NCBI GenBank assembly: GCA_023245035.1
Contig: JAHFLD010000004.1
Location: forward strand, 13,496 to 77,495
DNA length: 64,000 nt
Reading direction: 5' to 3'
From: Candidatus Harrisonbacteria bacterium
Lineage (GTDB): Bacteria; Patescibacteriota; Minisyncoccia; UBA6257; 1-14-0-10-40-38
Below, piece after piece: positions 1,788 through 36,906 of this stretch (its first letter is position 1; each line of letters begins with the position of its first letter). The translations under genes were made by a program, and so were the position numbers. The notes under the pieces were generated by a model. It saw only the letters and a program-made list of their open reading frames with translations, did not search any database and had not been told where the DNA came from.

Positions 1788-2660
1788 TTATAATTTTATA
1801 ACTGTTAATATATTTTTTTCTTTAGTTATTTTAAGCGCTCCATCGCGGTCGGTGCGAAAAATTTGAGCCCCGTTTCTTTCCAATCTATCAAGAGCCGATT
1901 TGGTTGGATGGCCATAGGTATTTTGACCAACTTCAATGACGGCGGCCTTGGGGTTTGTCGCTTTAACAAAAGCGCTGCCGGAAGAAAACTTTGAGCCATG
2001 ATGACCGACTTTTAGCACGTCGGAGGCGAGATCATATTTTTTTGCGAGGCGGTTTTCCACCATAAATCCTATATCTCCGGTGTAAACTGCCGAGATTGAT
2101 GCGTCAGAAAAGCGGAAGACGACGCAGGTGTTGTTGAGTTCGGGGTCGCGAAGTTCTTGCGGAGAGGGCGAGAGAATGTCCAGACGCGACCGGCCATAAG
2201 TTATCTTGTCGCCTTCGCCGACAACCACATAAGGAATTTTTTTTGCAATCAGCGCCTCTCTTAGCTCATTATAAGATTCTATTTCTCCCTTGCGGCCAGT
2301 CCCTAAAAAAACCCGAACCGGCAAGGTCTGAATAACCGCAATCAATCCGGCGAAGTGATCCAACTGGGGGTGGGTCATAATCATTAGATCTATAAGGCGG
2401 TGATCCGGAGGGAGTACGCGATCCAATTCGCCGGTGACTATGGCGTTGCGACCGCCGTCAATTAGAATCGTCGTCGGCCGACCACCATAATCGCGGGCAA
2501 CGATGAGCTCGCTGTCGCCCTGGCCGACGTTGAGGAAGAACAGTTCGGTCGCCTGTTTCTTATTCAAGATTCCGGTTTTCAAAATAAACCAGGCGGCAAT
2601 CGCCCACAACGCGAGAACCACAAGCCAAGCTTTTTTGGTGGAAATTTTATCTTCGTTCAT
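1788..2660 (-). CDS. comEC: ComEC C-terminal metallo-beta-lactamase-fold domain (second part of the split comEC)
   Basis: N-terminal TM helix followed by an HxHxDH-type motif (MIMTHPQLDHFAGL), typical of the ComEC MBL domain. It is in the +1 frame relative to the upstream comEC part. Confidence 0.8.
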   Translation of the reverse strand: MNEDKISTKKAWLVVLALWAIAAWFILKTGILNKKQATELFFLNVGQGDSELIVARDYGGRPTTILIDGGRNAIVTGELDRVLPPDHRLIDLMIMTHPQLDHFAGLIAVIQTLPVRVFLGTGRKGEIESYNELREALIAKKIPYVVVGEGDKITYGRSRLDILSPSPQELRDPELNNTCVVFRFSDASISAVYTGDIGFMVENRLAKKYDLASDVLKVGHHGSKFSSGSAFVKATNPKAAVIEVGQNTYGHPTKSALDRLERNGAQIFRTDRDGALKITKEKNILTVIKL

Positions 2661-4089
2661 AGCCGGTTGTCTTTTTTTGACCGTAGAAAACTATTATTAA
2701 CAGCGCCGTGAAATAAAAGACCGTGGCGACTCCGCCTATAGAGTTGACCCTGATCGCTCCCTGATGAGCGCTCAAGAACTCAATGATATTGATTTCGGCG
2801 CGAGTGATAATGCTCAAAAATTCACCGGCCAGCCCGCCCAAAATGGCGCTTAGGGAATAAACAGCCAGCGTGACTACGGCAAGGAGCATGGTTATGGGTA
2901 TCAAGGGCAAGATGATGACGTTGGCCAGAATAGAGATGAGTGAAACGGTTTTGAAACTCGCGGCCAAAACCGGAAAGACCACCGCTTGCGCGGCAATGGT
3001 ATTAATCGCATTCTCTCGCCAATGCCAAACTCCGGGATTTGGACCCAGGTAAAAGATTTTACGCAAAGCCGGAGCGAGATAAAAAATGCCGATTAGCGAC
3101 AGAAATGAAAGCTGGAAGCCGAGATCGCCAAGCAGGAGATAAGGATTAGCTAACAGCATCACGCAACAGGTTAGAGCGATGGTGTTGCGCGGACTGTAAA
3201 TCTTTTCCGCGTGCGCGGCGAGTCCAACCACGAGCGCCATAATCGCGGCGCGAATAATGGAGGCATCGGCGCCGGTCATAATCACAAAACCCAGCGCAAC
3301 TAGAATGGTCAAAACAAAGACGCCGCGGCGGGAGACAAGACCAAGCAATGCCACGGCGACTGACTGGATGATGATGGTGATGTTGTAGCCCGACAAGGCG
3401 ACGATGTGACTGACACCAGCCTTGCGGATCGCGTCGCGGAAGTTTTGTGAAAAACCTCCGGTGTCGCCTAAAAGCAATCCGGCGATGAAAGACGATTCTT
3501 TGGTCGGTAAAATCTTGCCGAGAGTGTTTTTGACCACGGTCTGCAGTTCATCCAATCCTCGCTTAATGGCATTGCCGCCCCCGTGGCTTTGAATGGTTAT
3601 TTTGGGAAAGTTTATGGTACCGCTTAATTTGTGGCGGGCGGCGTAGATTATTTTTTCTTCGGATATTGGATTCGCCTTTCCCTCAATTAAAATTTCGTCG
3701 CCGTAGCGCAGGGGCGGACTCTTTCGGGCGAGAATTTCCAGGCGTTCGCTTGGCGAGGCTTTGGTTTGAAAGAGAATGCGTTGTGAGTTTGGACTCTGGC
3801 GCACCTCTAAAACTATTCCGGTAAGATTGCGAGGGATGTCAAAAACGGCGCTTGGATTGCGATTAAAAACTATGGAATATCCTATCGCGTATAGAAACCC
3901 AGCGCCGACTCCGATAGCAATCATGAAGCGCAAAACAACTTTTGAGCGCCAGAGAATAAACTCCGCTATAACGACTCCTAAAATCAGCCAGGGTAAGACC
4001 GACCATGGATTCGCGGGGTTGGCAGTCGCGGCGTAGATACCGCTTACAAAACCCATCATTAGCCAAAAAGCCCTTTCGTGGAGCGGCAT
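2647..4089 (-). CDS. comEC: ComEC/Rec2 competence protein, N-terminal OB-like region plus polytopic membrane competence domain (first part of a split comEC)
   Basis: Multi-TM protein with the ComEC competence-domain architecture. It ends 14 nt inside the next ORF, which encodes the MBL domain normally fused to ComEC. Confidence 0.8.
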   Translation of the reverse strand: MPLHERAFWLMMGFVSGIYAATANPANPWSVLPWLILGVVIAEFILWRSKVVLRFMIAIGVGAGFLYAIGYSIVFNRNPSAVFDIPRNLTGIVLEVRQSPNSQRILFQTKASPSERLEILARKSPPLRYGDEILIEGKANPISEEKIIYAARHKLSGTINFPKITIQSHGGGNAIKRGLDELQTVVKNTLGKILPTKESSFIAGLLLGDTGGFSQNFRDAIRKAGVSHIVALSGYNITIIIQSVAVALLGLVSRRGVFVLTILVALGFVIMTGADASIIRAAIMALVVGLAAHAEKIYSPRNTIALTCCVMLLANPYLLLGDLGFQLSFLSLIGIFYLAPALRKIFYLGPNPGVWHWRENAINTIAAQAVVFPVLAASFKTVSLISILANVIILPLIPITMLLAVVTLAVYSLSAILGGLAGEFLSIITRAEINIIEFLSAHQGAIRVNSIGGVATVFYFTALLIIVFYGQKKTTGYERR

Positions 4090-4166
4090 AAAAATTTTTG
4101 AACGGATGGCGTAGAGGGTTTAGGGTGGAGGGAATTGGAATTTTGCCGACTCGGATGATCGCGTTA

Positions 4167-4694
4167 TTAAAACTCCAGAGCGATTTTGGCCATAACGCCG
4201 TCATTGAAAGGGTGTTTGATTTCGCGCATTTCGGTTACCAGATCGGCGGCTTTTATAAAGGCCTCGGGGGCGTCGCGGCCGGTGAGAATTATGAATTTTT
4301 CTTTGGGGAGTTTTTTGATAACCCCCAAGACTTCATCCGCTGTTATGAGATTTAGATGGGTGGCGTTGTTTATTTCGTCTAAGATAATCAAGTCCCAGGT
4401 ATTTTTTTGAATTTCGGTTTCGGCTTCGCGCAGGGCGGATTCGGCGGCTTTTTGGTGCTCCTCAATCGGGAGCGAGTCGCCTAAAATTCCCACAAAACCG
4501 AGGCCTCGCTTGCGGAGTTCAAACCCGGGCTGGTTTTCCGGTTTTTGGATAATCACCTTATCCTCGCCAGACTTCCACGGCCCTTTAATGAATTGAATCA
4601 TTAAGGCTTTTTTGCCACGGCCAACCATGCGAGCCGCCTGGCCAAGCGCGGCGGTGGTTTTGCCCTTGCCGTTGCCGGTAAAGATGATGAGCAT
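4167..4694 (-). CDS. cobO: cob(I)yrinic acid a,c-diamide / cob(I)alamin adenosyltransferase (CobO/BtuR family)
   Basis: N-terminus MLIIFTGNGKGKTTAALGQAARMVGRGKKALMIQFIKG is the characteristic CobA/CobO P-loop. Confidence 0.8.
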   Translation of the reverse strand: MLIIFTGNGKGKTTAALGQAARMVGRGKKALMIQFIKGPWKSGEDKVIIQKPENQPGFELRKRGLGFVGILGDSLPIEEHQKAAESALREAETEIQKNTWDLIILDEINNATHLNLITADEVLGVIKKLPKEKFIILTGRDAPEAFIKAADLVTEMREIKHPFNDGVMAKIALEF

Positions 4695-4751
4695 GGTTTT
4701 AGTATAAGGGTTGAGGGTTCAGGGTAAAGGGTAAAAAAAGCCCCCGATAAT

Positions 4752-5966
4752 CTAGCTAATCACTCCCCCGCCGAGCATTTCGCCAGACTTGGAATAGAAG
4801 ACGGCCGATTGCCCCGGAGCGACGAACTTTTGTGGGCGGTCAAAGGTGAGGGTGGCGGTAAATGAACGATGCGAAATTTTAAAATGCGAATGACGCGATT
4901 TTTTTTGGTTTAGTGATTTGTCATTGTCGACTTTCAGATATAGCATGGCTTTCGCGAGGGGCTGGCGATAGCGGAGGCGGGCGAAGACTGGAATGGGTTT
5001 TGGGGCGGGGGGTAAAAGGCGGCTGGTGGGAAATTTAGAGGTGGAAGAAGGCGCGGGCGGGGAAATAAAATGAAGGTCGGTTAGCATAACTTCTTTTTTT
5101 GAAAGTTCGGGGTGGTCGGCGCCTTCGGCGACGGTGATGGTGTTTTGTATAACATCTTTGGCTGATATGTAGCGGGGTCTAGAATTGGGAGTGAGGTTTG
5201 AGGGCTGAGGGCTGAGGTTAAATCCGTGGCGCTGGCCGATGGTATAAAAAGCCGCGCCGCGATGTTCACCGATGATATTGCCTTCGGGGTCGAGCACCGC
5301 GCCTTTTTTTGGTTTGATGTATTTGGCTAAAAAATCCGTCAGCGAAACTTTACCCAGGAAGCAGATGCCTTGGGAATCTTTTTTTTCGGCGTTGGGTAGT
5401 TTGAACTTTTTGGCGAACCGACGAACTTCGGGTTTGGTATAATCCCCAATTGGAAAGAGACAATGATCTAGCTGATCTTGCGTGAGCATCCAAAGGAAGT
5501 AGGATTGATCTTTGTTTTTGTCCAGAGCGGTAAATAACCGATGCGAAATTTTAGAATGCGAATGATGCGAAGTTTTACTCTTGCGACTTGCCAGCCGCAC
5601 ATAATGCCCAGTAGCAATGAAGTCGGCGCCGAGTTCGCGGGCGGCTTGATAAAAAAGTCCAAACTTAATTTCCCGATTGCACATCACATCGGGATTTGGG
5701 GTTTCGCCATTCTTGTATCCGGCGACCATGTATTCCACTACCTTGGCCTTGTATTCCTTTTCAAAATCCAGAACATAAAATGGGATTTTGAGAGCTTCGG
5801 CGGCGCGGCGGGCGTCTTCGGCATCTTGCTCGGCACACCCGTCAACGTTGTAACAGCGCAAATGGACGCCGGTTACTTGATAACCTTGTTTTTGAAGCAG
5901 GGCCGCGGCGACCGAGGAGTCCACCCCGCCGGACATCCCCACGAAGACCTTTTTTATTTTGATCAT
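4752..5966 (-). CDS. mnmA: tRNA-specific 2-thiouridylase MnmA
   Basis: SGGVDSSVAA PP-loop, the DKNKDQSYFLW motif, and a GQSAVFY C-terminus. It is longer than typical MnmA because of two in-frame insertions. Confidence 0.9.
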   Translation of the reverse strand: MIKIKKVFVGMSGGVDSSVAAALLQKQGYQVTGVHLRCYNVDGCAEQDAEDARRAAEALKIPFYVLDFEKEYKAKVVEYMVAGYKNGETPNPDVMCNREIKFGLFYQAARELGADFIATGHYVRLASRKSKTSHHSHSKISHRLFTALDKNKDQSYFLWMLTQDQLDHCLFPIGDYTKPEVRRFAKKFKLPNAEKKDSQGICFLGKVSLTDFLAKYIKPKKGAVLDPEGNIIGEHRGAAFYTIGQRHGFNLSPQPSNLTPNSRPRYISAKDVIQNTITVAEGADHPELSKKEVMLTDLHFISPPAPSSTSKFPTSRLLPPAPKPIPVFARLRYRQPLAKAMLYLKVDNDKSLNQKKSRHSHFKISHRSFTATLTFDRPQKFVAPGQSAVFYSKSGEMLGGGVIS

Positions 5967-5969
5967 ATT

Positions 5970-6004
5970 TATTACCCTTAAAAACTCCAGTTTTTAAGGA
6001 TGTT
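5970..6004. promoter_or_regulatory. Palindrome CCTTAAAAAC-TCCA-GTTTTTAAGG followed by GATGTTGTTAT. Candidate operator immediately 5' of mnmA.
   Basis: Perfect 10-bp inverted repeat. It is a near-identical copy of the site at 6313-6347. Confidence 0.45.
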
Positions 6005-6005
6005 G

Positions 6006-6308
6006 TTATATCTTTTGGAATGATTGCAGAAAGCGCACAAATGTCTTGCCATATGGCGATAGCGCATGTTCAACAAATTTACCGCGATATTTTTTATTAA
6101 CCAGCCCTGCCACATACAATCTCCGCGTATGTTCTCCAAGAGTCTTCTCGTTCGCGCCGAGCGCGGTGATAATATCGTCCAACGTTGCCCCATTGTTATC
6201 TGCAACATATAGCAAGATCTCAATCCGATAATGGTTAGCCATGCCCTTCAAATGCCGCTCCATCTGTTTAGCGGTTTTTGATTTTGCCATAGTCGCATTA
6301 TATATCAT
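6006..6308 (-). CDS. ArsR/SmtB-family winged-helix transcriptional regulator
   Basis: 100-aa protein with an HTH segment (HYRIEILLYVADNNGATLDDIITALGANEKTLGEHTRRLYVAGLV) typical of the ArsR family. Confidence 0.6.
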   Translation of the reverse strand: MIYNATMAKSKTAKQMERHLKGMANHYRIEILLYVADNNGATLDDIITALGANEKTLGEHTRRLYVAGLVNKKYRGKFVEHALSPYGKTFVRFLQSFQKI

Positions 6309-6312
6309 GCAC

Positions 6313-6347
6313 TTATAAACTCAAGTTTATAAGGATGTTATTTTGGG
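6313..6347. promoter_or_regulatory. Palindrome CTTATAAAC-TCAA-GTTTATAAG followed by GATGTTATTTT. Candidate operator directly 5' of the ArsR-like gene.
   Basis: 9-bp inverted repeat ending 3 nt before the regulator's start codon. It is paralogous to the site at 5970-6004. Confidence 0.45.
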
Positions 6348-6725
6348 GGACTTTGCTGATGGTTTAATAATTTTTCGGCTGGGGAGATGCCGCCGAAGAC
6401 TTTATGCGGAAAGTAGTTCCAGGCGTCGGATACCAACTGCGCAGTATTATCAAATAAACGAGAATTATAGTAAATAAACTTGATATTTCAGGGTATTCCC
6501 TGTTAAGAGGTCCATCTTTGTCCAGTTAAAAACTGTAGTGGATAAAATCGGGTATTTTTGCACAGTACGGCGTGGAAAATATGCAAAATTATCCCGAGCT
6601 CTAAATTTTGGGCGGTCAGCGTTCAAAATGCATTGGCAAGATTGTGTGAACCTCCACAGCCTTACGGCTGTGGCCTCCTTGGAATACCCCTCGACTATGC
6701 TCGGGGTTATATGCGCTTCATTCAT
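6338..6725 (-). pseudogene. Degraded transposase/integrase-core C-terminal fragment (frameshifted remnant)
   Basis: Minus-strand translation ends ...FIYYNSRLFDNTAQLVSDAWNYFPHKVFGGISPAEKLLNH*. This resembles the YYN...PAE C-terminal motif of rve-type transposases. There is no intact upstream ORF and the frame is broken. Confidence 0.3.
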
Positions 6726-6765
6726 CCCCAGCCTAAAACGGCAGGAGTTTGCTTATGTTGCGCAT

Positions 6766-6795
6766 ATAAAAAGAGCCCCAACTAAGTTGGGGCTC
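6766..6795 (-). terminator. Intrinsic terminator for the high-GC gene
   Basis: Perfect 11-bp stem GAGCCCCAACT/AGTTGGGGCTC with a 1-nt loop, followed on the minus strand by a T-run. Confidence 0.6.
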
Positions 6796-6864
6796 AAACG
6801 AACGGAAGAACTCAAGGAATCAAGAGAGTCAAGAGAGTCAAGAGTTCAAGCTAACAAGGGTCGA

Positions 6865-7740
6865 TTACTGCGAGACAAAGGCCGAAGCGGAACCATAGTC
6901 CCCGCCGGCGCTGCCGCACCAGCGGGCGCCGAACCGGACCCTGCCGCCGCCGAAGCGGAAGAGCGGCGCGAGCGAGAAGTCGCCATCGGCGTCCGGAGAG
7001 AACTCGTCACCAGCGCAGTCGACGTGGAGCTGTTCCCACTGAACCTCGCGTTCGGGGTGGGTCAGCAACATGATGCCGATTGCGAAGGCTCCGAGACCGA
7101 ACTCGTTGGCCGCGAAGACCTCACGTGCCCGGCGCACCGAACGGCCCTTGTGACGGAGACCGAACTGAGCCGGGACGACGAGGATGTCGTGATCCTTCTG
7201 CTCGTCGCCGAGCTTCTGGAACATCTTCGCCGTCTTGGCGTGCTGTCGCAGGTACTCCGTTCCGAGCTGGCCGTCACGGTAGTTGTAGAACTTCCGCTTG
7301 GACCCGATCATCGCGAGCACCTTCTCGACCGCTTCGCCGTACGTCGGCGCGAACTTCTCCCACTTCGGAATGGCGAACCATCCCTCGGCGTTCGGGGGAA
7401 GCGGCTGGTCGGCCAACTTCTCATCGGCGAAGCCGATACCCGGGAAGAGCTGACGCAGGATGTTGGTCTGCTCGGTGATCCCCTTGACCTTGTAGCCTTT
7501 GGGGTACGTGTAGCTCGACTGCACTTCCTCGTCAGCGAACTGGTTGGACACCGAGAGCTCTTTGATACCGGTCACGATGCGAGCTTGGAACTCGTCACCG
7601 TTCTCGATGAGCTTCTGGATGCCGTCCTTGTCGAGAGCCGTCTCTTTGAGCGCACGCAGGGCGGCGTCCTCGACAAAGCGCAGGTACTGTTTCTTTTGTC
7701 CATCCGTGATGGACGTGATCGACTGTGTCGTCATCGTCAT
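6865..7740 (-). CDS. Hypothetical protein encoded in a high-GC, high-GC3 (foreign-looking) segment
   Basis: 291-aa ORF with strong GC3 codon bias (ctc, atc, gtc, aag, gag, ttc) and diverse amino-acid composition. The opposite-strand ORF looks like an antisense shadow. Local GC is roughly 65% against ~50% around it. Confidence 0.6.
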   Translation of the reverse strand: MTMTTQSITSITDGQKKQYLRFVEDAALRALKETALDKDGIQKLIENGDEFQARIVTGIKELSVSNQFADEEVQSSYTYPKGYKVKGITEQTNILRQLFPGIGFADEKLADQPLPPNAEGWFAIPKWEKFAPTYGEAVEKVLAMIGSKRKFYNYRDGQLGTEYLRQHAKTAKMFQKLGDEQKDHDILVVPAQFGLRHKGRSVRRAREVFAANEFGLGAFAIGIMLLTHPEREVQWEQLHVDCAGDEFSPDADGDFSLAPLFRFGGGRVRFGARWCGSAGGDYGSASAFVSQ

Positions 7741-8068
7741 CCTCCTTGAGATTGGACTGATCCGAAACGCTCGGATAAGCGACTACCTCAACACAAGGCA
7801 AGTCTTCCTTTACTAAACGATTTCTGGAAATCAACACCCGATACAACTTATTTAGACTTGAATGGCGCGTTTATAGAAAAATACTTAGGAAAGGGAGACT
7901 TGCCTCGTGTGGCTGAATTAAAGCTTGTTTTTGCTAGGTTTTTAAGGAACCCACGTATTCTAGCACTATATGGTTAGATATGTCAACTTGGTGGGTTTGA
8001 TTAAATAACTTGCGGATAAGTTAATTTTTTGCTACAGTTTGGTGGCTTTTTAATCAATTCGGGACTTT

Positions 8069-8641
8069 ATGCTCAATTACAACGATTTAAAAAAGGGGGT
8101 TATATTCGTGCTAGAGGGCGAGCCGTACGAGGTTTTGGAATACGCTTTTTTGCGGATGCAACAGCGCAAGCCGGTGACTAAGACCAAGATTAAGAATCTG
8201 ATTTCCGGCAAGATAGTGGAGCGCAATTTTCACCAGAACGAAAGTTTTGGAGAGGCGGAGATTGAGAAAGAACCGGCGAAATATATTTATCTTAATCGCG
8301 GGGAATACTGGTTTAGCGATCCGAAAAATCCCGCCAAACGCTTTGCTTTAAGCGAGGAGTTGGTCGGAATCAAGGGGCAGTTTATGAAACCCAACAGCGA
8401 GGTTTTGATGGTGAAGTTTGGGGAGAAGATTATCGGCGTTGATGTGCCGATTAAGGTGGAGCTTAAGGTAACATCTACACCGCCCGGCGAGCGCGGGAAT
8501 ACCGCCCAAGGCGGAACCAAAAGCGCGACAGTGGAAACCGGCGCGGTGGTTCAGGTTCCCCTCTTTGTGAACGAGGGCGACGTGGTGAGAATAAACAGCG
8601 AGTTGGGAACCTACGTGGAGCGCGTAGAGAAGGCGAAGTAG
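8069..8641 (+). CDS. efp: Elongation factor P
   Basis: 190-aa translation aligns to EF-P throughout (KKGVIFVLEGEPYEVLEYAFLRMQQRKPVTKTKIKNLISGK...). Confidence 0.9.
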   Translation: MLNYNDLKKGVIFVLEGEPYEVLEYAFLRMQQRKPVTKTKIKNLISGKIVERNFHQNESFGEAEIEKEPAKYIYLNRGEYWFSDPKNPAKRFALSEELVGIKGQFMKPNSEVLMVKFGEKIIGVDVPIKVELKVTSTPPGERGNTAQGGTKSATVETGAVVQVPLFVNEGDVVRINSELGTYVERVEKAK

Positions 8642-8702
8642 TTCTTTGCTCTAAGAATCGCCTGCTTTGTTGCGACCTCCGGATACTCGGCCGCGCCCTG
8701 CG

Positions 8703-10352
8703 TTAGACCTCCTCTTCCAATTCCGGGTTTTCCAAAAAACTTACGCGGGTTTTTTCGGCTTCAATGATTTCTTGATTGTTCTTTTTAAGGGCTTCGTCGA
8801 TCGACTTGCGCAGATCGGATAGGTTTACCTCTTTCTTCTCGCGTTTTTCGAGCGGCGGAACTGGCGGCATTTCACGATTATCCGGCCGGCGGTTCATGGG
8901 CGGTGCTGGCATCGGCCGGTTGGCCGGCGGAGGCGAAGGCTGGCGCATCGGCGGGCGGCTATTTGGAGCGCTATTGTTCATTGGCGGACGACTCGGGCTA
9001 TTATTATTAAAAGTACGTTCGGGCGGTTGTTCGGGTCGGCGACTCATTCTTTCGTCCATGGCATTCATATCTTCCATCCATTCGCCGGCGATGTTCTTCT
9101 CTACGACTTGCCGGGGCGTGCCGTATTTAGTCCGCGAGTTTTGAATTATCGTTGCCTTGAAAGTTTTTTCCAAACTTGGAAATGGCGGTAACATTTCGGC
9201 GGAAAATGGCTTGGAAGCCATGCCATCAATCAAAAGTTTGATGTAGGTATTGTATTTTGGCAGATTGACCAAATCATTAGCGGTAAAATCTGGTAAAAAT
9301 TCTTTTTCCAAAAACTCGGCGTCTTCGGCGCCGATGCGGAAGGTAACAATGGTGCCGACGTTGCCGAAGACCGCGTCACGGACCTTGGTGTTGCCGTCGT
9401 GGGTCAACTGGCTGATATATTGATGAGCCAAAATCAGACAAAGGCGGTATTTTCTGGCTTCCGACAAGATGTTGGCAAAAGAGTCGGTGGCGAAGTTTTG
9501 AAATTCGTCCACATATAGATAGAAGTCCTTGCGATCTTTTTCGGGAATATCAACGCGCGACATGGCCGCCAACTGCAGGCGGGTAATAATCATGGAGCCG
9601 AGCAGGGCGGAATTATCCTCCCCCATCTTGCCCTTGGACAAGTTGACGATGAGGATTTTTTTCTCGTCCATAATCTTGCGCATGCTGACCGCCGATTGGG
9701 TTTGTCCCAAGATGTTGCGAATCAAAGGGTTAGAGATAAACTGGCCGATTTTGTTTTGAATGGCGGCGGTGGCTTCGGTTTCAAATTTTTGCGAATAACG
9801 GGAAAACTCGTTTACCCAGAAACTTTTGATGACCGGATCTTGCAGGTTCTCCACAATTCGGCGGCGATATTCCTTGTCGTTTAAAAGACGCATGATGCCA
9901 AGCAGCGTGGAACCCGGATATTCCAACAGCGCGAGCAGGGCGTTGTTTAAAATATATTCCATTCGGGATGACCAGACATCGGGCCAGATTTTTTTGAAAA
10001 CACCCATGATGCTTGACGCGATCAAGTGGCGAAATTCGTTGCCGACCTGTTCAATCGGATTAAAACCAATCGGATGCTCAACATCGGACGGATTGAAATA
10101 GACAACATCATTCAGGCGATGTTCCGGCACGAAATCCAGAACTTTTTCGGCAAACTCGCCGTGGGGATCAACGATGCCGACGCCGTGGCCGGCTTGAATA
10201 TCGCTGTAGACCATATTCTCCAGAATGGTCGTTTTGCCCATGCCGGTCTTGCCAATGATGTACATATGGCGACGACGGTCATCGGCCTTGATGCCGAATC
10301 TTTTGGTCTCGTTGCGAAAATTAACTTTGCCGAAAACGTTGATGTCTTTCAT
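8703..10352 (-). CDS. P-loop ATPase of the TraD/TraG/VirD4 (T4SS coupling-protein / DUF87-like) superfamily with a proline-rich C-terminal tail
   Basis: Walker A motif IGKTGMGKTT, Walker B motif LYVDEFQNF, and a low-complexity P/R/N-rich C-terminus. Confidence 0.55.
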   Translation of the reverse strand: MKDINVFGKVNFRNETKRFGIKADDRRRHMYIIGKTGMGKTTILENMVYSDIQAGHGVGIVDPHGEFAEKVLDFVPEHRLNDVVYFNPSDVEHPIGFNPIEQVGNEFRHLIASSIMGVFKKIWPDVWSSRMEYILNNALLALLEYPGSTLLGIMRLLNDKEYRRRIVENLQDPVIKSFWVNEFSRYSQKFETEATAAIQNKIGQFISNPLIRNILGQTQSAVSMRKIMDEKKILIVNLSKGKMGEDNSALLGSMIITRLQLAAMSRVDIPEKDRKDFYLYVDEFQNFATDSFANILSEARKYRLCLILAHQYISQLTHDGNTKVRDAVFGNVGTIVTFRIGAEDAEFLEKEFLPDFTANDLVNLPKYNTYIKLLIDGMASKPFSAEMLPPFPSLEKTFKATIIQNSRTKYGTPRQVVEKNIAGEWMEDMNAMDERMSRRPEQPPERTFNNNSPSRPPMNNSAPNSRPPMRQPSPPPANRPMPAPPMNRRPDNREMPPVPPLEKREKKEVNLSDLRKSIDEALKKNNQEIIEAEKTRVSFLENPELEEEV

Positions 10353-10408
10353 AGCGCGGACGGTTTAGCCAGAACTTATCATACCATTCCATGATTTTAA
10401 GATATAGC

Positions 10409-11665
10409 TTATTCCAGGGGCAATCCGGCCGGGGGTTCGCCTTTGCGCGAGCTTAGACGGCGAAGCATGGGAGATTTGACCGCGATGGCCGGAAAATGGA
10501 AGATCGTGGCCAACTCTTCAACATTCAGCACTGAATTTTTTCGGCCCATCATTCGATAGCGGTAGGCTTTGAAAATTTTTCGTTTTTTAGCTTCGGCTTT
10601 TTGATCCTTGAATGGAAACTTGCCCTTGGTCATCGTGTCCAAATCCGGGCGGAAAAAGTTCATATCGCGCGTGTCAAATTGCCGAAAGGCGCCGAGTACC
10701 GCCGAAATGTGGCCACGAGTGAAACTTTCCCGGCGATCTATATAGATAAAACGAATGCGGGCATCAAAGGCAATTTTAGCCATCTTTTTTTCAATATTTT
10801 CGATGATATCTTTTTCACCGGGACTTTTACCGGCCATTAGGTTTTCGTTGGCAGGCTTGTCTTCTTTTTTACCCCATTCAATTTCGGCGAATGGTCCTTT
10901 GAAAAAATTGCCGATGAGTTCTTTGGCATCGTCGGTGGCTTTGGCTTTTTTGGGTTTCTTGCGCCCGATAAGCTTGTCGCGAGTTTCTTCGGCTTGCTTC
11001 TTCCAGTCATCGCCGGTAGGGCGAATCAAAAATTGTAACAAAATCATCTCGCCTTCTTTGAGACGAGACATAACCTCGGCGATGCCGGCCATCGGATCGA
11101 GCAGGGCCTCGTCTTTTTTTTCTTCAAAAGCCGGATAGGTGCGAATCGGATAACCATCGTCACGACCTAGGATTAGGTCGGTGCCCCAGAGATCATAAGT
11201 TTTGTTGGGAATAATTCCAGGCAGATTGCTTAGATAGTCATCCACTTCGGCAATTTCGGCGTCGGGATATTGGGAGTAGATGGCGGACTCAACTAGACTG
11301 CGGTGATTTTCCGAAGTGCGGATATAAAAATAAATTCCACCGGCAATACCAACCATTTCGATGGAATACCACTCCTGAACTTTGCCTTTTAAGTTCTTTT
11401 CAAACCATTTGATATTAAAAACGTAGCTGGCGTGGAGGGCAGCAAAGACCTGCTCCATGGCTTTGGGGGTTTTTTCGATAACCTGTGGAATACGGATCTC
11501 AAGCGTGACCCATTTCATCTTCTTGAGAGCTTCGATGAGAATGTAGTAACGAAGGCGCTCCCAGAAGACGCTACCCACAATGATGGGTATGATAATCCAC
11601 CAGCTTACACTAAAAGCTTGGCTGACTGCCTGCCAGATTCCGCCAAGGATTTCATCGAGCATCAT
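10409..11665 (-). CDS. Hypothetical membrane protein, partner of the upstream ATPase
   Basis: N-terminal TM helices (WWIIIPIIVGSVFW). The rest is a charged soluble domain with no recognisable catalytic motif. Confidence 0.5.
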   Translation of the reverse strand: MMLDEILGGIWQAVSQAFSVSWWIIIPIIVGSVFWERLRYYILIEALKKMKWVTLEIRIPQVIEKTPKAMEQVFAALHASYVFNIKWFEKNLKGKVQEWYSIEMVGIAGGIYFYIRTSENHRSLVESAIYSQYPDAEIAEVDDYLSNLPGIIPNKTYDLWGTDLILGRDDGYPIRTYPAFEEKKDEALLDPMAGIAEVMSRLKEGEMILLQFLIRPTGDDWKKQAEETRDKLIGRKKPKKAKATDDAKELIGNFFKGPFAEIEWGKKEDKPANENLMAGKSPGEKDIIENIEKKMAKIAFDARIRFIYIDRRESFTRGHISAVLGAFRQFDTRDMNFFRPDLDTMTKGKFPFKDQKAEAKKRKIFKAYRYRMMGRKNSVLNVEELATIFHFPAIAVKSPMLRRLSSRKGEPPAGLPLE

Positions 11666-11775
11666 AACGCTCTAGAGTATGTTGGGAAAATACTTATTCT
11701 GCAAGCGCAGAGATCTATTAAGTTGTGAACAACTTAGTTGTTCAGGGGATTCTAAGTACACCTCAAACCAAAGTA

Positions 11776-12807
11776 TTAGACTTCGCGGATGTCGTAGGTT
11801 CCGTTGCCGATGTTCTTGAAATACTTCTTATTCTGCAGATTGATCATAATCGTTCCCTCTTTGAAGAAACGTTTTTGGAGTACGAACTTGACCACATCGG
11901 CGGAGCGCAAGGGGCCTTTTTCTTTAATGAAGTGGGCGATGACTTCGCGGGCGGTGCCGGGAAGAATGCCAAATTCCTGCAAGCCGTACATGCCACGGCC
12001 GACGAGGACAAATCGCGAATCTTTAATCAGCTCATTATGCACGGTCTGGACGTTGGCGATTTTATTTTTGCGATAGGCGTTGATGTGAGCGACAATATCG
12101 GTGAAGTGGAGCGGTTTGCTTTCTTTTTTAACTACGATGTAGGCCCACTGCCGAGCGGTCTTGGGGTTGATTTCCGGCCACTCCGCGAGACCAAAATCGC
12201 CAAAGGGGCTGGTCATAAACTTGCGGGAGATACCCATATAGATTTTGCCCACCGGTTCGCTGATTTTGGAGGCTTTAACGGCCTCGGCGAAAACACCGTC
12301 GTAACTCGCGCCACGCAACATGGCATCTTTGGAAGAGCGCACGACCTTAACCAATTGACCGACAAAATTCTCGGCCTTCTTTTTTGATTCCTCGTTCAAA
12401 TACCAAAAAGGATGATAATCGTCATCGCCGCGATGCGCCATTACTTTTCCGGAAAGTTCCATGATAAAACGAACCGCGTTGCCGGATTTGGCATCGGACA
12501 TCGCTTTCGGCGTGGCTTTAACCAATTCGGCGACAAGCGCGCCATCGTTAACCACCCCGCCCATTTCTTTAATAAATCGCGCGGCTTTTTCCGCCAGCGC
12601 CGAGGCGCCGGATTCGGCCATCTTTTTGCTGGACTGATTAAGGGCAAAAGCCTCAATCTGCCGCACTCGTTCGCGGGTAATGTTATATTTTTCCCCAAGT
12701 TCGGCGAGGGTCAAGCTGGCGTTGCCATCAAGACCGAATCGACCGGTCAGGATGTCTTTGGCGCGCGCGTCGAGTCCTTGAAGGAGAGTTTTTACTATTT
12801 TTTCCAT
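11776..12807 (-). CDS. Sigma-70 region-4-like HTH domain protein of unknown function
   Basis: N-terminus LDARAKDILTGRFGLDGNASLTLAELGEKYNITRERVRQIEAFAL is a classic sigma region 4 HTH. The remainder is uncharacterised. Confidence 0.5.
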   Translation of the reverse strand: MEKIVKTLLQGLDARAKDILTGRFGLDGNASLTLAELGEKYNITRERVRQIEAFALNQSSKKMAESGASALAEKAARFIKEMGGVVNDGALVAELVKATPKAMSDAKSGNAVRFIMELSGKVMAHRGDDDYHPFWYLNEESKKKAENFVGQLVKVVRSSKDAMLRGASYDGVFAEAVKASKISEPVGKIYMGISRKFMTSPFGDFGLAEWPEINPKTARQWAYIVVKKESKPLHFTDIVAHINAYRKNKIANVQTVHNELIKDSRFVLVGRGMYGLQEFGILPGTAREVIAHFIKEKGPLRSADVVKFVLQKRFFKEGTIMINLQNKKYFKNIGNGTYDIREV

Positions 12808-12912
12808 ATTCGCGTTTTTGACCTTATTTTTTAATTAAAATCACTTTACCACAATGTAATCTATAGCGCAATACCCTGTCAAGCCCTTAAGGCAAGGCCG
12901 TGCCATTTTGAC

Positions 12913-13818
12913 TTAGACCCTCTCTTCTTGGCCGCGCCACAGAGTTAACAAGGGGCTGGCGATAAAAATAGAAGAGTAGGTGCCAATTATGGTTCCGATT
13001 AGAATGGTAAGAGTGAAATAAGTCAGCGCCGAAGAGCTAAAGGCCAGAACGGCAAGCAAAACGAGCACGAGCGTGAGCGAGGTATTGATTGAGCGAGCTA
13101 AGGTTTGGTTGACGCTTTCGTTGACTAGCAAACTAAAATCTTTTTTACGCGAGTCTACTGCTTTTAGATTTTCGCGAACACGATCAAAGACGACGATGGT
13201 GTCGTGAACCGAGAAGCCCATGACGACCAAGACCGCCACCATAAAGTTGACGTCAATATCGATGCCGATGTAGTGGCCGAGGACGGCAAAAAGACCGACG
13301 GGAATAATGGCGTCATGAAAAAGAGTGATAAGCGTAATGGCGCCGTACTTCCAGGATTTGACCGGGTACGAGGACTTGCGGAAGGCAAAGGCGATGTAGG
13401 TTGAGATGGCAAAGAGAACCAGCAAAAAGGCGGTGATGGACTTCTGCCCGAGCTCTTTGCCGATAGAGGCGCCGATGGCCTGAAAAGAAAGCTCTTGAAC
13501 CGGACCAAACTCTTTGACCAGAAGTTTTAGATCTTCCTGTCGATCTTTTTCGGAAATCTCCTCCGTTCGGATTAAGAAAGTTTTGCCTTCTTGTTGCGGG
13601 ATTACGGTTACGTTTTCTTTTTTGATTTGGGTCTTGAAAAAAGCTCCCAAAGTGTCTTTGGTGGCGGCATTTTGAGTAAACGACAACTGCCACAAGGTTC
13701 CGCCCTTAAACTCAATTCCGAAGCGAAAACCGAAAACAAGCATGGCGACGACACTCAAGGCCACCAAGGTTCCCGAGATTGATAAAAATATTTTTCTGTG
13801 ACCGATGATGTTTTTCAT
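12913..13818 (-). CDS. secF: Protein translocase subunit SecF
   Basis: LSISGTLVALSVVAMLVFGFRFGIEFKGGT and an overall SecF topology. Confidence 0.9.
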   Translation of the reverse strand: MKNIIGHRKIFLSISGTLVALSVVAMLVFGFRFGIEFKGGTLWQLSFTQNAATKDTLGAFFKTQIKKENVTVIPQQEGKTFLIRTEEISEKDRQEDLKLLVKEFGPVQELSFQAIGASIGKELGQKSITAFLLVLFAISTYIAFAFRKSSYPVKSWKYGAITLITLFHDAIIPVGLFAVLGHYIGIDIDVNFMVAVLVVMGFSVHDTIVVFDRVRENLKAVDSRKKDFSLLVNESVNQTLARSINTSLTLVLVLLAVLAFSSSALTYFTLTILIGTIIGTYSSIFIASPLLTLWRGQEERV

Positions 13819-13851
13819 ATGGTTACGAATATACGAATTAGACTGATGTTG

Positions 13852-15105
13852 CTATTTTTTAACGAAAACGCGGAGCAGGGTTTTGGTAACCGTAATCGCG
13901 CTGAACATGCTAACTAAGACGCCAAGCAACATGGCCAGGGCAAATCCTTTAATAAAACCGGTGGTGAAGTAGTAAAGAATAACCGAGGTGATGATGGTCG
14001 TGATATTGGAGTCGCGAATTGACGGCCAGGCGCGTTTAAAGCCCTCGCCGATAGAGGTCACACGATCCAATCCCCGATTCCGCTCCTCTCGACTTCGCTC
14101 GAAAATCAAGATGTTGGCATCAACCGCCATGCCGATAGACAAGACAATGCCGGCGATTCCGGCCAAGGTCATAGTGATGCCGAAGACCTTGAAAACAAAC
14201 AAGCTGAAGGCGATGTAGATCACGAGCGCGAGGGCGGCGTACCAGCCGAGAGTTCGATAGTAGACCACCATAAAAAGCATCACGAGCAGGGTGCCGATGA
14301 TGCCGGCAAAAATAATCCGATTGAGCGAATCAATGCCAAGACTGGCGCCAATAGTTTGCTGGCTGACCAAGTTAATCGGGGCCGGCAAGGCGCCGGCGTT
14401 GAATCTGGAGACAAGCTCCCGAGCTTCTTTGATGGTGAAGCGTCCGGTAATCTGCGCTCGGCCGCCGGTGATTTTTTGTTGAACTACCGGAGCGGTGATG
14501 AGCGTGTTATCCAAAAAAACGGCAATCGGACGGCCAACATTTTTTCCGGTAAGTGTTTCAAAAATTTGGGCTCCTTCTTTATCAAATTCAAGCGTGACTT
14601 GCGGTTCGCCGGTCACATTGCTCAAAGCCAGCTGGGCCCCGCGAACATAACGTCCGGTAAGCTGGGTTGGAATAAAACGCGGTTCGGCGCTTGGCGTCGT
14701 GGTGCCAACGGTGGAGGTGGCGACTTGTTCCACTTCGGCAAAAAGCAAAAAGGGCGTGCTGCCGATCTCCTTAATCGCGTCGCCGACGTTTTTGATTCCG
14801 GCGAGCTCAACGATTAAGCGATAACTACCGCCCTCTTTGGCGGTGACGACTTGCGGCTCGCTGACGCCATAGAGGTTGACCCGGCGTTCAATAACGCTGC
14901 GCAAGCCCGTAAGTACCGAGTCGCGATCGTTAGCGGCGACCGAACGCATATCAATTTCGTAAACCAGATGCGCGCCGCCTACGAGGTCCAAACCGAGGCG
15001 CCAGGGCAAGAGGCGCGCGCCAAATCCACGCGGCAAGACGAACAGGATCGCGAGTATGGCGGCGGCAAGGACGGCAATTAGCAAACCGATTGGTTTCTTA
15101 GTCAT
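13852..15105 (-). CDS. secD: Protein translocase subunit SecD
   Basis: LGLDLVGGAHLVYEIDM and a SecD periplasmic domain. The ORF-track start at 15252 adds a non-protein-like R/H/S-rich extension, so the start is probably MTKKPIGLL at 15105. Confidence 0.85.
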   Translation of the reverse strand: MTKKPIGLLIAVLAAAILAILFVLPRGFGARLLPWRLGLDLVGGAHLVYEIDMRSVAANDRDSVLTGLRSVIERRVNLYGVSEPQVVTAKEGGSYRLIVELAGIKNVGDAIKEIGSTPFLLFAEVEQVATSTVGTTTPSAEPRFIPTQLTGRYVRGAQLALSNVTGEPQVTLEFDKEGAQIFETLTGKNVGRPIAVFLDNTLITAPVVQQKITGGRAQITGRFTIKEARELVSRFNAGALPAPINLVSQQTIGASLGIDSLNRIIFAGIIGTLLVMLFMVVYYRTLGWYAALALVIYIAFSLFVFKVFGITMTLAGIAGIVLSIGMAVDANILIFERSREERNRGLDRVTSIGEGFKRAWPSIRDSNITTIITSVILYYFTTGFIKGFALAMLLGVLVSMFSAITVTKTLLRVFVKK

Positions 15106-26374: not shown

Positions 26375-26475
26375 ACTAGATACAATACTTCTATTCCGGG
26401 ATAGCCCCGCCTACGCCAAGAGCTTTGGCGGGCAGGTCAGCGATATATTCAACCGCTATCCCGAAATAGAAACAT

Positions 26476-26547
26476 TCCGGGATAGCTCAGCGGTAGAGCG
26501 GCGCGCTGTTAACGCGAAGGTCGCAGGTTCGATCCCTGCTCCCGGAG
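26476..26547 (+). tRNA. tRNA-Asn (anticodon GTT)
   Basis: Hand-folded: acceptor TCCGGGA/TCCCGGA, D-arm GCTC..GAGC, anticodon loop CTGTTAA, T-arm GCAGG-TTCGATC-CCTGC, discriminator G. Confidence 0.85.
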
Positions 26548-28014
26548 CCCGATTGGTTGATTAGCGAAAGTGAGGATCGTACTAAATGGTTCTCGTAGCG
26601 TAAACACTGGCTTTCTGCCGTTTACGATTGAGTTCTGAAGTAGATAGTTGAGAAACTTTCGTTTTTCGGGAACTTCCGAACCTTTAAATATTTCGAGCGC
26701 GTTCTTGGCGAGATTTAGCACAGTAGAAGCGGTATTGTAATAGTTTTCATCGGCTTGGGTATGTTCTTCAAGGTGCAGGTTAATTTCGTACTGTCGTTCT
26801 TTTAGTTCTTTAAACTTCTTGTCATAGTCGTCCTTAGTAATACTACTGTCGAGCAGTAAGTCCATAAGCCGATCTATTTTGACCTGTACTAGGTTGTATT
26901 CCTTCTGAAAGCTATCTACTGCGTTTTCGTGATACGAGGTTTTAGATTCGTTGCTACGCCGCAAACCGGTTACTACTTCATCTATCTTCTCCTGTGGCAT
27001 GGCCTTAAATGCCCCTAGGATGTCGTAGATTGGCTTCAAGAGCTCTCTTTCGGGTATGTATAGCTTTTCTTTGCACAAGTCTTTTTTGGCGTTCGTACAA
27101 CTGTAGTAAATATATTTCCCTTTAGCGGTTTCCGGACTCATAGCGCACCCGCATTTACCACAGCGAAGCAGTCCTCTAAAAATATGAGGCTTGGCCGCAT
27201 ATTGGAACGGCTTCTTGCCCCAACCCTTCCTAATCTCTTGGCACCGATCAAAAAGCTCTTTAGTAATGAGGGGCTGATATTTATGAGGATACAGCTTGCC
27301 CTTGCACCTCATAATGCCGTAATAGAATGGGTTACTTAAAATAAAATTAACCATGCTGAAAGCTAACGGCTTCCCCGTCTTACTTTTCAAACCATCTTTA
27401 GCTATGGCAATCCTTACTGTTTTGCCTGAATGATTTCCCGTGGCGTATAGCTCAAACATTTTGCGGATTAAATGCGCTGTATTTGGATCGGGAATTATAT
27501 CTTTCCTTAATCGCTTCTCGGCGTCCAAAGCGATGTTCTGATAGCCCATCGGCGCTTTGCCCGTCCATTCTCCGTTTCTTCGCTTCTGCTCAAACTTTCT
27601 TTTAACATTATCGCTCAACTGGAGGACATAACTTCTTGCAAACATAACAGCCATATCCCAACGGAGCAATTCCGAACTGTTTGAGTTTTGGCCTAAAACT
27701 AAATTTTCACGATAGAAATGAATTTCGAGCTTGCCAACTTTCCTAAGCTCATCTAACAGCACCGATTCTTTAAAGCTTCTTTGGAGCCGGTCAACAGTAT
27801 CAACCACGAGAGCGATCGGCTCCTTGGAGTCTTTTATGACTTCAACTACTTCTTGAAAGCGCTCTCTGTCGCCGGTAGTCGAGGATTCTTCAATTTCGTA
27901 TGTTTTCCAAACTGAAAGCCCTTTGAATTTCACATAATCAGAAACACGGACTACCTGCGCTTCATTTGAGTCCTGTTTTTTGTCTGATACACGGGCTAAG
28001 ATGATGGCTTTCAT
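26509..28014 (-). CDS. Large serine recombinase (resolvase N-domain, recombinase domain, zinc ribbon)
   Basis: N-terminus MKAIILARVSDKKQ carries the catalytic Ser. A CGKCGCAMSPE...YYSCTN zinc ribbon follows. The 3' end overlaps the tRNA-Asn antisense. Confidence 0.85.
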   Translation of the reverse strand: MKAIILARVSDKKQDSNEAQVVRVSDYVKFKGLSVWKTYEIEESSTTGDRERFQEVVEVIKDSKEPIALVVDTVDRLQRSFKESVLLDELRKVGKLEIHFYRENLVLGQNSNSSELLRWDMAVMFARSYVLQLSDNVKRKFEQKRRNGEWTGKAPMGYQNIALDAEKRLRKDIIPDPNTAHLIRKMFELYATGNHSGKTVRIAIAKDGLKSKTGKPLAFSMVNFILSNPFYYGIMRCKGKLYPHKYQPLITKELFDRCQEIRKGWGKKPFQYAAKPHIFRGLLRCGKCGCAMSPETAKGKYIYYSCTNAKKDLCKEKLYIPERELLKPIYDILGAFKAMPQEKIDEVVTGLRRSNESKTSYHENAVDSFQKEYNLVQVKIDRLMDLLLDSSITKDDYDKKFKELKERQYEINLHLEEHTQADENYYNTASTVLNLAKNALEIFKGSEVPEKRKFLNYLLQNSIVNGRKPVFTLREPFSTILTFANQPIGLREQGSNLRPSR

Positions 28015-28017
28015 AAT

Positions 28018-31000: not shown

Positions 31001-31077
31001 ATATTTGGCGTGTATTGTGCCACTACGGTGCTTTGTGGATTTTCCGCGACGAGATTGTATTTATTGTTACTTGGCAT
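28018..31077 (-). CDS. hsdR: Type I restriction enzyme R subunit
   Basis: 1019 aa with the helicase motif TGSGKT, DEAH-like motif FDECHRS, and a nuclease region near the N-terminus. Confidence 0.9.
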   Translation of the reverse strand: MPSNNKYNLVAENPQSTVVAQYTPNIQRVTQYQSEANLEKVFIEQLTKQAYEYLPITSEADLTLNLRLQLEKLNGFTFTDTEWEHFFASEIANPNQSVEEKTATIQEDHIKNLTREDGTVKNVYLLKKDNIHDNSLQVINQYATDEGKRANRYDVTVLVNGLPLVHVELKRRGVAIQEAFNQINRYQRESFFASAGLFEYVQLFIISNGTHTKYYSNTTRKEHIKEVSTGTAKKGKRASNSFEFTSWWADSTNRPITDLTDFAKTFFAKHTLLNILTRYCVFTTDKQLLVMRPYQIVATERILSRIEVSTNYKKLGTVEAGGYIWHTTGSGKTLTSFKTAQLVSKLPYVDKVVFIVDRKDLDYQTMREYDKFEKGAANSNVSTAILKRQLENPNARIIITTIQKLDRFIGRNSGHTIFDGHVVLIFDECHRSQFGDMHAAITKTFKSYHLFGFTGTPIFAMNASSGGRLDLKTTEQAFGEKLHTYTIVDAIADKNVLPFKVDYISTVREAENIEDKKVSDIDREAVLAAPERLANIVGYIREHFDQKTKRNSFYKLKDRRLAGFNSIFAVSSIDVAKKYYAEFKKQLADVPSDKRLKVATIYSFGVNDEDADGMIDENSEDTTGLDVSSRDFLDGAIADYNAMFGTSYDTSSDKFQNYYKDVSQRAKDREIDILIVVNMFLTGFDATTLNTLWVDKNLRLHGLLQAFSRTNRILNSVKTFGNIVCFRNLEKATNESIALFGDKEASGIVLLKSYAEYYHGYKDGEKQIRGYASLVAELLEKFPVGERIIGEQNQKDFIKLYGGILRVRNILTTFDEFIGNEILSDRDIQDYHSAYIDLYNEFRKGVEDAKENINDDLVFEMELIKQVEINIDYVLGLIKKYHEDHTKNREILVDINKAIDSSVELRNKKDLINQFISSLDIHSVVDDDWQKFVEGKKVEELEQIIVSENLDHDATYRFVRNAFRDGNLATTGTAITKVLPAVSRFSPTGERTKKRESVLSKLTSFFERFFDISGGKFSE

Positions 31078-33867: not shown

Positions 33868-33869
33868 AA

Positions 33870-34052
33870 CTATTTTGTTCTTACTTTGCTCATAAACCGC
33901 TCAAACTCGGATCGCTTGATGCGAAACTCTTTGCCTATCTTATGGGCAACTAATTTACCCGCACCTATATAGCGGTAAATTGTCATCACATTTACTTTAA
34001 GCTTCCCGGCTAATTCCTTTGCTGTATAAAATTCATCTTTCATAGTTAGCAT
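33870..34052 (-). CDS. Excisionase/AlpA-family HTH DNA-binding protein
   Basis: 60 aa with the HTH YTAKELAGKLKVNVMTIYRYIGAGKLVAHKIG. Confidence 0.6.
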   Translation of the reverse strand: MLTMKDEFYTAKELAGKLKVNVMTIYRYIGAGKLVAHKIGKEFRIKRSEFERFMSKVRTK

Positions 34053-34057
34053 AGTTA

Positions 34058-35335: not shown

Positions 35336-35516
35336 CTTTTTCCACCAATTCTTTTTCGGGTTTTTTATTTCGCGTTCTCACGCCCTGAATAATAAATAAC
35401 CCTCTAAGCTCCACGTGGCCTAGAGGGTTCGAGAGGGTTTTCTTGTAAAATGATAAAAAAAGACCACCGAATTTAAGGTAGTTTTAAAAGCCCTCTAAGC
35501 CGATGCAACCCACGGT

Positions 35517-36755: not shown

Positions 36756-36906
36756 TATTCTTTACTTTAGTTTACATTCCATGATTATTCAATTGGTAAT
36801 GTGGGCTATTTTAAAAGCCTTGAATCGTTACAGGTAATGAGGTTGACTTTGATGTTACTAACAGGCTACCATGTCAATCCGAAGCAGTAAGAATTATAAT
36901 AGGCAT

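Follow-up and report, generated by a model that had tools for sequence, protein, structure and literature searches.

Diversity-generating retroelements (DGRs) are known systems that rewrite the tip of a binding protein via error-prone reverse transcription. Here we analysed a 64-kb stretch of DNA from Candidatus Harrisonbacteria (the window, W) and in particular a minus-strand gene at 6865-7740, whose identity the original prediction had left unrecognised. A homologue search and the flanks of the homologues identified it as a DGR variable-protein gene, and we hold with high confidence that it encodes the variable protein (the target) of the Patescibacteria DGR clade. The window is an apparent Patescibacteria (candidate phyla radiation, CPR) chromosome with a GC content of 0.48, and encodes ComEC, MnmA, an ArsR-type regulator, EF-P, a VirD4/TraG-like ATPase, SecDF and DnaK. 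Related loci or contigs that were compared with it are numbered L001-L094.

A DGR clade that is restricted to Patescibacteria and has targets without recognisable domains was described previously (PMC8144416, PMC5758913). It is the "DGR clade 2" of Roux et al. 2021 (PMC8144416), and in Wu et al. 2018 (PMC5758913) the "CPR set" has architecture B3 and variable regions (VRs) of the classes UVR1-6 or ungrouped. In complete cassettes, a template repeat (TR) of ~130 nt is transcribed, and a complex of the reverse transcriptase (RT) and Avd reverse-transcribes it, misincorporating opposite adenines. The cDNA then replaces the last ~130 nt of the target, the VR, with the outcome that about 12-16 surface residues are randomised on a conserved scaffold of roughly 245 residues. 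Paul et al. 2017 reportedly likewise covers CPR DGR variable proteins.

At the level of the family, the gene in the window resembles this clade in its Patescibacteria-restricted hosts and in the chromosomal cassette of target, TR, Avd and RT. Further likenesses are the VR at the extreme C-terminus, the adenine-specific mutagenesis and the lack of a recognisable Pfam domain; in addition, no signal peptide or membrane segment is visible in the protein sequence (judged by eye, no predictor run). Unlike the CPR cassettes, the window copy lacks TR, Avd and RT within about 82 kb. With Mtd of Bordetella phage BPP-1 and TvpA of Treponema denticola (PDB 2y3c) it shares a C-terminal VR of about 130 nt, template codons of the AAY type and about a dozen variable residues presented on a conserved scaffold. 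In contrast to these two proteins, it has no match to the FGE-sulfatase family or any other Pfam family and no significant structural match. The window gene is a known kind of feature, a Patescibacteria DGR variable-protein gene, here without the retroelement.

The protein family and its retroelement context

The homologue search gave 2870 close matches, the best 120 of which were 75-94% identical, and the family comprises at least 1768 clusters at 50% identity. The named sources are mostly Patescibacteria (Parcubacteria/Paceibacteria, Magasanik-, Uhr-, Lipton-, Howlett-, Berkel-, Morani-, Nealson-, Zambryski-, Specht- and Nomurabacteria), together with a few bins that carry other labels. The genes neighbouring the homologues vary between genomes and show no conserved synteny. 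As stated in the original prediction, the protein has no recognisable domain: searches of the domain and defence libraries Pfam, PHROGs, NCBIfam and PADLOC gave no match, and neither did sequence and profile searches of the PDB.

A copy of the last ~130 nt of the gene was found 330-1600 nt away in about 39 related loci. The target is accompanied by a neighbouring bAvd-type gene and RVT_1 reverse transcriptase in about 37 of 85 related loci. When 30 ungapped repeat pairs were compared, one per locus, 526 of the 558 mismatches between TR and VR (94%) fell on adenines of the TR. Because the repeat copy and the RT/bAvd genes adjoin the target and the mismatches fall on TR adenines, the hallmark of DGRs, the family can be assigned to the DGR variable proteins. 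In a check of this assignment, the TR-like repeats proved both adenine-biased and linked to RT/Avd.

The AlphaFold2 model, built from an alignment of 88 sequences, has a pLDDT of 95.3 over the full length and of 97.1 for residues 88-291. It consists of a three-helix N-terminal part, a central alpha/beta domain and a C-terminal beta region bearing the VR. Invariant polar motifs (PAQFGxRHRGRS, EFGLG, THPER and DCAGDE) are located in the alpha/beta domain. Foldseek searches of the PDB (with the full length and with residues 88-291) and of viral models returned nothing significant. Their lists are dominated by C-type-lectin-like domains, with TvpA and the formylglycine-generating enzyme among the top entries, all non-significant. 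The fold may be a divergent version of the C-type-lectin fold or a new one.

In some genomes the variable-protein gene has tandem paralogues (L001, 9014-9907; L062, about 5447-5963), and one representative protein (P0121, 478 aa) is an apparent fusion of two copies with two matched stretches. No paralogue of the target gene was found elsewhere in the window.

The LOOT RNA (Rfam RF03000, a small RNA motif) was observed at the outer edges of the target/TR/Avd/RT modules. It is present in 9 of 16 DGR-bearing loci compared to 1 of 15 loci without TR, and is lacking in the window. In L002, two inverted copies (5775-5908 and 10924-11046) flank the entire module. In L010, L011, L012, L024 and L064 it lies about 170-200 nt past the target, and it also occurs in L027, L031 and L037. 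The RT-7 RNA motif (RF03028) gave a weak sub-threshold match just upstream of the TR in L012 (3657-3718, minus strand; 24.5 bits versus a gathering score of 116.8).

The variable region of the window copy

The open reading frame (ORF) of 291 codons that had been predicted on the minus strand is present, and the VR forms its 3′ end:

6865-7740, minus strand: DGR variable-protein gene; ORF of 291 aa, product probably 289 aa (assigned from the DGR context of homologues, the AlphaFold2 model and dN/dS)
6867-6997, minus strand: VR, residues about 247-291 (from the comparison with the L010 TR, column entropy and dN/dS)

Between the VR of the window and the TR of L010, which belongs to another genome, we counted 25 mismatches. 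Since 22 of these are at TR adenines, the window VR can be read as diversified, its source having been a near-identical template. Among 111 close homologues, the column entropy was 1.38 bits in the VR compared to 0.52 elsewhere, with a peak of variability at residues 257-281; the hypervariable residues are 257, 260, 262, 264, 267, 269, 271, 273, 275, 277, 279 and 281. In the VR, dN was 0.22-0.40 and thus equal to or higher than dS, whereas the scaffold is under purifying selection (dN/dS 0.15-0.49). When the window was compared with a strain variant, all 21 differences in 6895-6972 were at codon position 1 or 2. No A is present at the third codon positions of the VR. The 3′ end of the VR (GGTTCCGCTTCGGCCTTTGTCTCGCAG) is nearly identical to that of the family TRs, and in the four pairs displayed the last VR codon has a fixed C where the TR has A.

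TR, Avd and RT are all missing from ~82 kb, which comprise the window and extensions of 8 kb upstream and 10 kb downstream from the identical contig. The window copy is therefore an orphan target, which would be frozen, or else a remote one on which a DGR at another place in the genome acts in trans. The downstream region 6300-6870 was rejected as a decayed TR, Avd or RT. VRs distant from their cassette are known, for example as multiple or non-adjacent targets (Wu et al. 2018, PMC5758913). Like remote and orphan DGR targets, the window gene has kept a diversified VR and a conserved VR 3′ end without an adjacent RT. It differs from known remote targets in that no cognate DGR was located within ~82 kb and its VR is invariant across four assemblies. 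Of the related loci whose flanks extend for 2.5 kb or more to each side, roughly half also have no TR. The GC-rich hairpin downstream of many homologues, the TTATCCAC terminator and the YTTGR array were compared between DGR-linked and orphan loci, and none of them separates the two.

Codon usage, proposed exchange and competing explanations

According to the original prediction, the gene had a GC content of about 65% and extreme GC content at third codon positions (GC3), unlike its neighbours. The GC content is in fact 0.620 (GC1 0.62, GC2 0.41, GC3 0.83); GC3, at 0.832, is indeed an outlier: the remainder of the window has 0.478, and no other long ORF lies outside 0.31-0.72. The high GC3 is uniform along the gene. 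Outside the VR, third positions are composed of 0.11 A, 0.41 C, 0.34 G and 0.15 T. The codon usage is also foreign to the host, as had been claimed. When the target was compared to host DnaK and EF-P, the frequencies were 0.89 versus 0.26 for TTC, 0.64 versus 0.12 for ACG, 0.93 versus 0.39 for ATC and 0.35 versus 0.06 for CGT. The codon preferences of the target are not an exaggerated version of the host optimum.

This bias is a property of the target family. In 65 of 66 loci, GC3 of the target exceeds that of the flanking ORFs (means 0.75 versus 0.45), and this holds down to 41% protein identity. Within the same cassettes, GC3 is 0.73 for the target compared to 0.47 for RT, 0.48 for Avd and 0.47 for other ORFs. 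An adenine-only mutational cause of the excess was set aside because T is depleted at third positions too. High GC3 as a requirement for DGR targeting was also set aside, since the target of L072 has a GC3 of 0.47 together with an adenine-biased TR/VR pair. The candidate cause that fits best is recombination-linked, GC-biased conversion, with selection on the mRNA as a possible alternative. The compositional signal of an "alien gene" marks a DGR target here and offers a way to spot such genes from the sequence only; it would also catch orphan targets overlooked by RT-centred DGR finders.

In three genomes, W, L013 and L018, the target is placed divergently next to efp (7741-8068 in W). Between W and the other two genomes, EF-P identity is no more than 37-38%, and the fourfold sites are saturated (0.23-0.32). 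In contrast, the target scaffold of W is 76-77% identical to theirs, with a fourfold identity of 0.65-0.68. L013 and L018 themselves share 96% identity in EF-P and just 67% in the targets. The common position beside efp could be an ancestral site with allele replacement or could reflect an insertion preference. Elsewhere, a shared P-type ATPase was 32-63% identical where the targets were 88-90% identical, and in pairs of cassettes the fourfold identity was 0.6-0.8 for the target versus 0.22-0.39 for the RT. Identity to the window gene comes in mosaic blocks, ranging from 1.00 down to 0.41. This decoupling of target likeness from host likeness argues for allele exchange among Patescibacteria and not for import from a high-GC organism. 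The target family appears to have been exchanged by recombination among distantly related Patescibacteria while keeping its own GC3-rich codon dialect, and the target would look foreign in its host because of this trade. Horizontal acquisition, as originally proposed, is upheld in the sense that the target is far closer between genomes than housekeeping genes or the cassette RT; a one-off high-GC import is not, given the recurrence of the excess across loci and its lack in RT and Avd.

Tentatively, we suggest as one possible account that the Patescibacteria DGR targets, and not RT and Avd, form a shared, recombining gene pool with a GC3 dialect (about 0.75-0.85, with 0.2-0.7 for other genes of the hosts) and their own regulatory shell. 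The GC3 excess would result from exceptionally frequent recombination or gene conversion (GC-biased) at the target gene alone, or from an RT-linked process, and stand-alone copies would be recipients. If the GC3 excess and the decoupling of target, RT and host are true, a hypervariable receptor would be traded between ultra-small bacteria independently of its mutating machinery, and would also give a natural setting in which to test for recombination-linked GC bias in bacteria. The target-specific GC3 excess, the covarying leader hairpin and the array of YUUGR motifs in the 3′ untranslated region (3′UTR; both elements are described below) were not mentioned in the literature searched; what may be new are the codon dialect, the phylogenetic decoupling and the conservation of UTR elements.

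Selection at the level of translation or mRNA on a very highly expressed and vertically inherited gene, without any exchange, would also predict high GC3 and slow synonymous change. The near-consensus promoter, perfect Shine-Dalgarno sequence, strong terminator and conserved UTRs agree with this, as do the somewhat raised GC3 of host DnaK and EF-P (0.64) and the restriction of the excess to third codon positions, with UTRs that are not GC-rich. We nevertheless consider this explanation unlikely, because the preferred codons TTC, ACG, ATC and CGT are unlike those of DnaK and EF-P and the target reaches a GC3 of 0.84 where the other ORFs of the host have 0.29. In addition, the fourfold identity of the targets is higher between W and L018 (0.68) than between L013 and L018 (0.58), despite the much greater distance of W as a host (EF-P 38% versus 96% identical), and the L072 lineage, with a working DGR, has a low-GC3 target. 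Even less probable, to a degree that we give it very little weight, is a single recent import of an unrecognised gene from a high-GC donor, perhaps via a transposon of which a remnant lies downstream. Such an event would account for codon usage that differs from the host, even from DnaK and EF-P, and for the lack of synteny across genomes. It is contradicted by the GC3 excess throughout the homologous loci, whose hosts have a flank GC of 0.30-0.58, by named homologue sources that are all Patescibacteria save the few bins labelled otherwise, and by the host-like GC3 of RT and Avd in the same cassettes. Moreover, what was taken for a transposase remnant is a piece of a small, unrelated protein (see below), and the efp-adjacent position recurs in two very distant genomes.

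The original prediction had offered chimerism or contamination as an alternative, with a GC-rich segment foreign to the interval between mnmA/arsR and efp. That many homologue-bearing contigs are only 1-3 kb long and that contigs of other samples (L087, L089 and L090) break inside the gene would be in line with this. However, positions 2069-14641 of the window (12.5 kb, spanning both junctions) are 100% identical to L086, a contig from another sample, and further assemblies each cross one junction (L087 and L088 the upstream one, L089 and L090 the downstream one). Between W and L087, L089 and L090 we found 113 differences, 112 of which are inside the gene and one at 7741, the base beside the start codon; no other mismatch was present in ~13.7 kb of flanks. 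These results refute a chimera, to which we assign a negligible probability. The contigs break inside the gene because several alleles of a conserved gene co-occur in one community: the target gene acts as a multi-allelic, assembly-breaking repeat common to the genomes of that community. Equally close to nil is the chance that the real feature is a GC-rich structured RNA or the antisense ORF of 403 aa that spans the whole target gene (6538-7749, plus strand). GC-rich islands of AT-richer genomes are often structured RNAs, and public callers did choose a plus-strand ORF of 403 or 373 aa on the source contig and L086. Against this, the GC content of the gene depends on codon position, Rfam gave no match, and the sense protein, of which thousands of conserved sequences exist, is modelled with a pLDDT of 95-97. 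Stops, up to 14 of them, interrupt the codon-aligned antisense frame in all but 19 of 56 homologues, so that an overlapping antisense gene was rejected; this ORF is a by-product of the codon usage of the target.

Several observations weigh against our own interpretation of the gene as an exchanged DGR target. Part of the apparent signal for horizontal exchange could stem from constraint on synonymous sites, and the contigs with mosaic alleles end inside the gene and could be chimeras of the assembly graph. The model has no significant fold match to solved DGR variable proteins (best Foldseek E 0.37, query-normalised TM at most 0.30). Neither TR, Avd nor RT is encoded in the 64-kb window or its 8-kb and 10-kb extensions, and four assemblies (W, L086, L089 and L090) have the same VR, which fits a frozen target. 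Target recognition is said, by Guo et al. 2011, to rely on elements at the VR 3′ end, namely the IMH and a downstream GC-rich hairpin or cruciform. A hairpin of this kind (CCGCC-NNN-GGCGG) follows many homologues and is absent in the window.

On the source contig and on L086, the variable protein is mis-annotated: the public gene calls list the plus-strand ORF mentioned above and omit the real gene of 289/291 aa. This exposes an annotation problem, with public calls on the gene's own contig taking an antisense shadow ORF.

Composition also sets apart a low-GC island in the window at about 26500-36800, where the ORFs have a GC content of 0.35-0.44 compared to about 0.50 elsewhere. It begins at a tRNA-Asn gene (26475-26550) and includes the R and S subunits of a type I restriction-modification system. 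This island is a better candidate for recent acquisition than the target gene.

Transcription unit, untranslated regions and neighbouring features

The following features were assigned around the target gene:

7957-7986, minus strand: sigma-70-type promoter TTGACA-18-TGnTAGAAT with a TG extension, matching 11 of 12 consensus positions
7793-7910, minus strand: leader hairpin P1, the window version of a family-wide 5′UTR hairpin, with a larger internal insert in the window
7761-7792, minus strand: rest of the conserved leader, consisting of a near-copy of the 5′ arm of P1 (GAGGTAGTCG) and then a small hairpin (read by eye)
7741-7747, minus strand: Shine-Dalgarno sequence AAGGAGG, directly abutting the first ATG
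7732-7734, minus strand: second ATG, the likely true start, equivalent in position to the start of homologues
6808-6862, minus strand: 3′UTR array of six YUUGR motifs about 8-9 nt apart (CUCUCUUGA units; tandem repeat at 6812-6850 with a period of 9)
6763-6795, minus strand: intrinsic terminator with a 10-bp stem, a 3-nt loop and a T run (stem GAGCCCCAAC-TTA-GTTGGGGCTC at 6795-6773)
6356-6454, minus strand: pseudogene fragment, the C-terminal 33 aa of a family of hypothetical proteins of ~80 aa (tblastn E = 2e-14)

An independent transcription unit with its own terminator had been proposed for the gene. This agrees with the presence of a promoter, a leader of ~210 nt with a predicted 5′ end near 7950, a Shine-Dalgarno sequence and a terminator; the latter is located just downstream as predicted, its stem being of 10 bp with a 3-nt loop and not a perfect 11 bp. 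Judged by the promoter, structured leader, Shine-Dalgarno sequence, 3′UTR array and terminator, the target gene is a self-contained transcription unit whose expression is probably strong. Similar consensus promoters were found upstream of the homologues. The start region of the homologues reads AGGAGG-TTGACG-ATGACGACA, with ATGACG as the spacer in the window instead. Because the Shine-Dalgarno sequence touches the first ATG and the homologues begin at the second one, the product probably has 289 aa.

The leader of the window folds with -58.5 kcal/mol (z = -4.7). In 20 homologous leaders, the 21 pairs of P1 are paired at 93.6% and 14 of them have compensatory changes; this pairing was reached by none of 500 shuffles, and slid controls pair at 34-47%. 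The small leader hairpin, TCCGA-GCGTT-TCGGA (CCNGAGCGAUUCNGG), lies at 7761-7775 and is followed by an A-rich linker and the Shine-Dalgarno sequence. Read by eye, its stem varies between loci as CCUG/CAGG, CCAG/CUGG, CCGG/CCGG and CCCG/CGGG. Across the family, the 3′UTRs contain a mean of 3.6 YUUGR motifs per 85 nt with a spacing of 7-9 nt, compared to 0.5 in shuffles, and the array is absent downstream of TRs. Rfam has no family for the leader or the 3′UTR of the window. The conservation of leader and 3′UTR elements suggests that expression of the receptor may be regulated.

In many homologues (e.g. those of L003, L008, L010, L012, L017, L027 and L069) the terminator hairpin, about 75-100 nt past the stop codon, is made of two inverted copies of TTATCCAC(A), the consensus word of the DnaA box. 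The terminator of the window differs from this type.

Downstream of the target, at 6338-6725, the C-terminus of an rve-type transposase had been reported. The quoted peptide exists (6341-6487, in a minus frame), but it has no transposase relative, no Pfam match at E up to 10 and no tblastn match in plasmids. Its only relatives among 5.8 billion proteins are fifteen hypothetical, domain-free proteins of 47-86 aa (P0271-P0285) with 62-78% identity. In intact loci, these small-protein relatives come after a Fic-domain gene; in the window the last 33 residues alone survive and no Fic remnant is present. A remnant of an rve (DDE) transposase or integrase was rejected, the relatives being small Fic-associated proteins without domains, and the fragment at 6356-6454 is not part of the target system. 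In L091-L094 (e.g. L092, 2937-4542), which are from Patescibacteria, a Fic-domain protein, a protein of ~86 aa and a hydrophobic protein of 94 aa are encoded as a conserved trio. This gene set may be a toxin-antitoxin-like module.

Two direct repeats were observed on this side of the target. One of 31 nt (87% identity; 5977-6007 and 6312-6342) flanks the ArsR-type gene, with one copy upstream of arsR and the other upstream of mnmA. Its copies contain the palindromes CTTAAAAAC-N4-GTTTTTAAG and CTTATAAAC-N4-GTTTATAAG, then GATGTT, and are likely operator sites. The other, of 50 nt (88% identity; 4855-4904 and 5527-5576), lies within mnmA (4752-5966, minus strand), so that the enzyme contains a His/Ser-rich peptide insert in duplicate (SHHSHSKISHRLFTAL and SRHSHFKISHRSFTATL).

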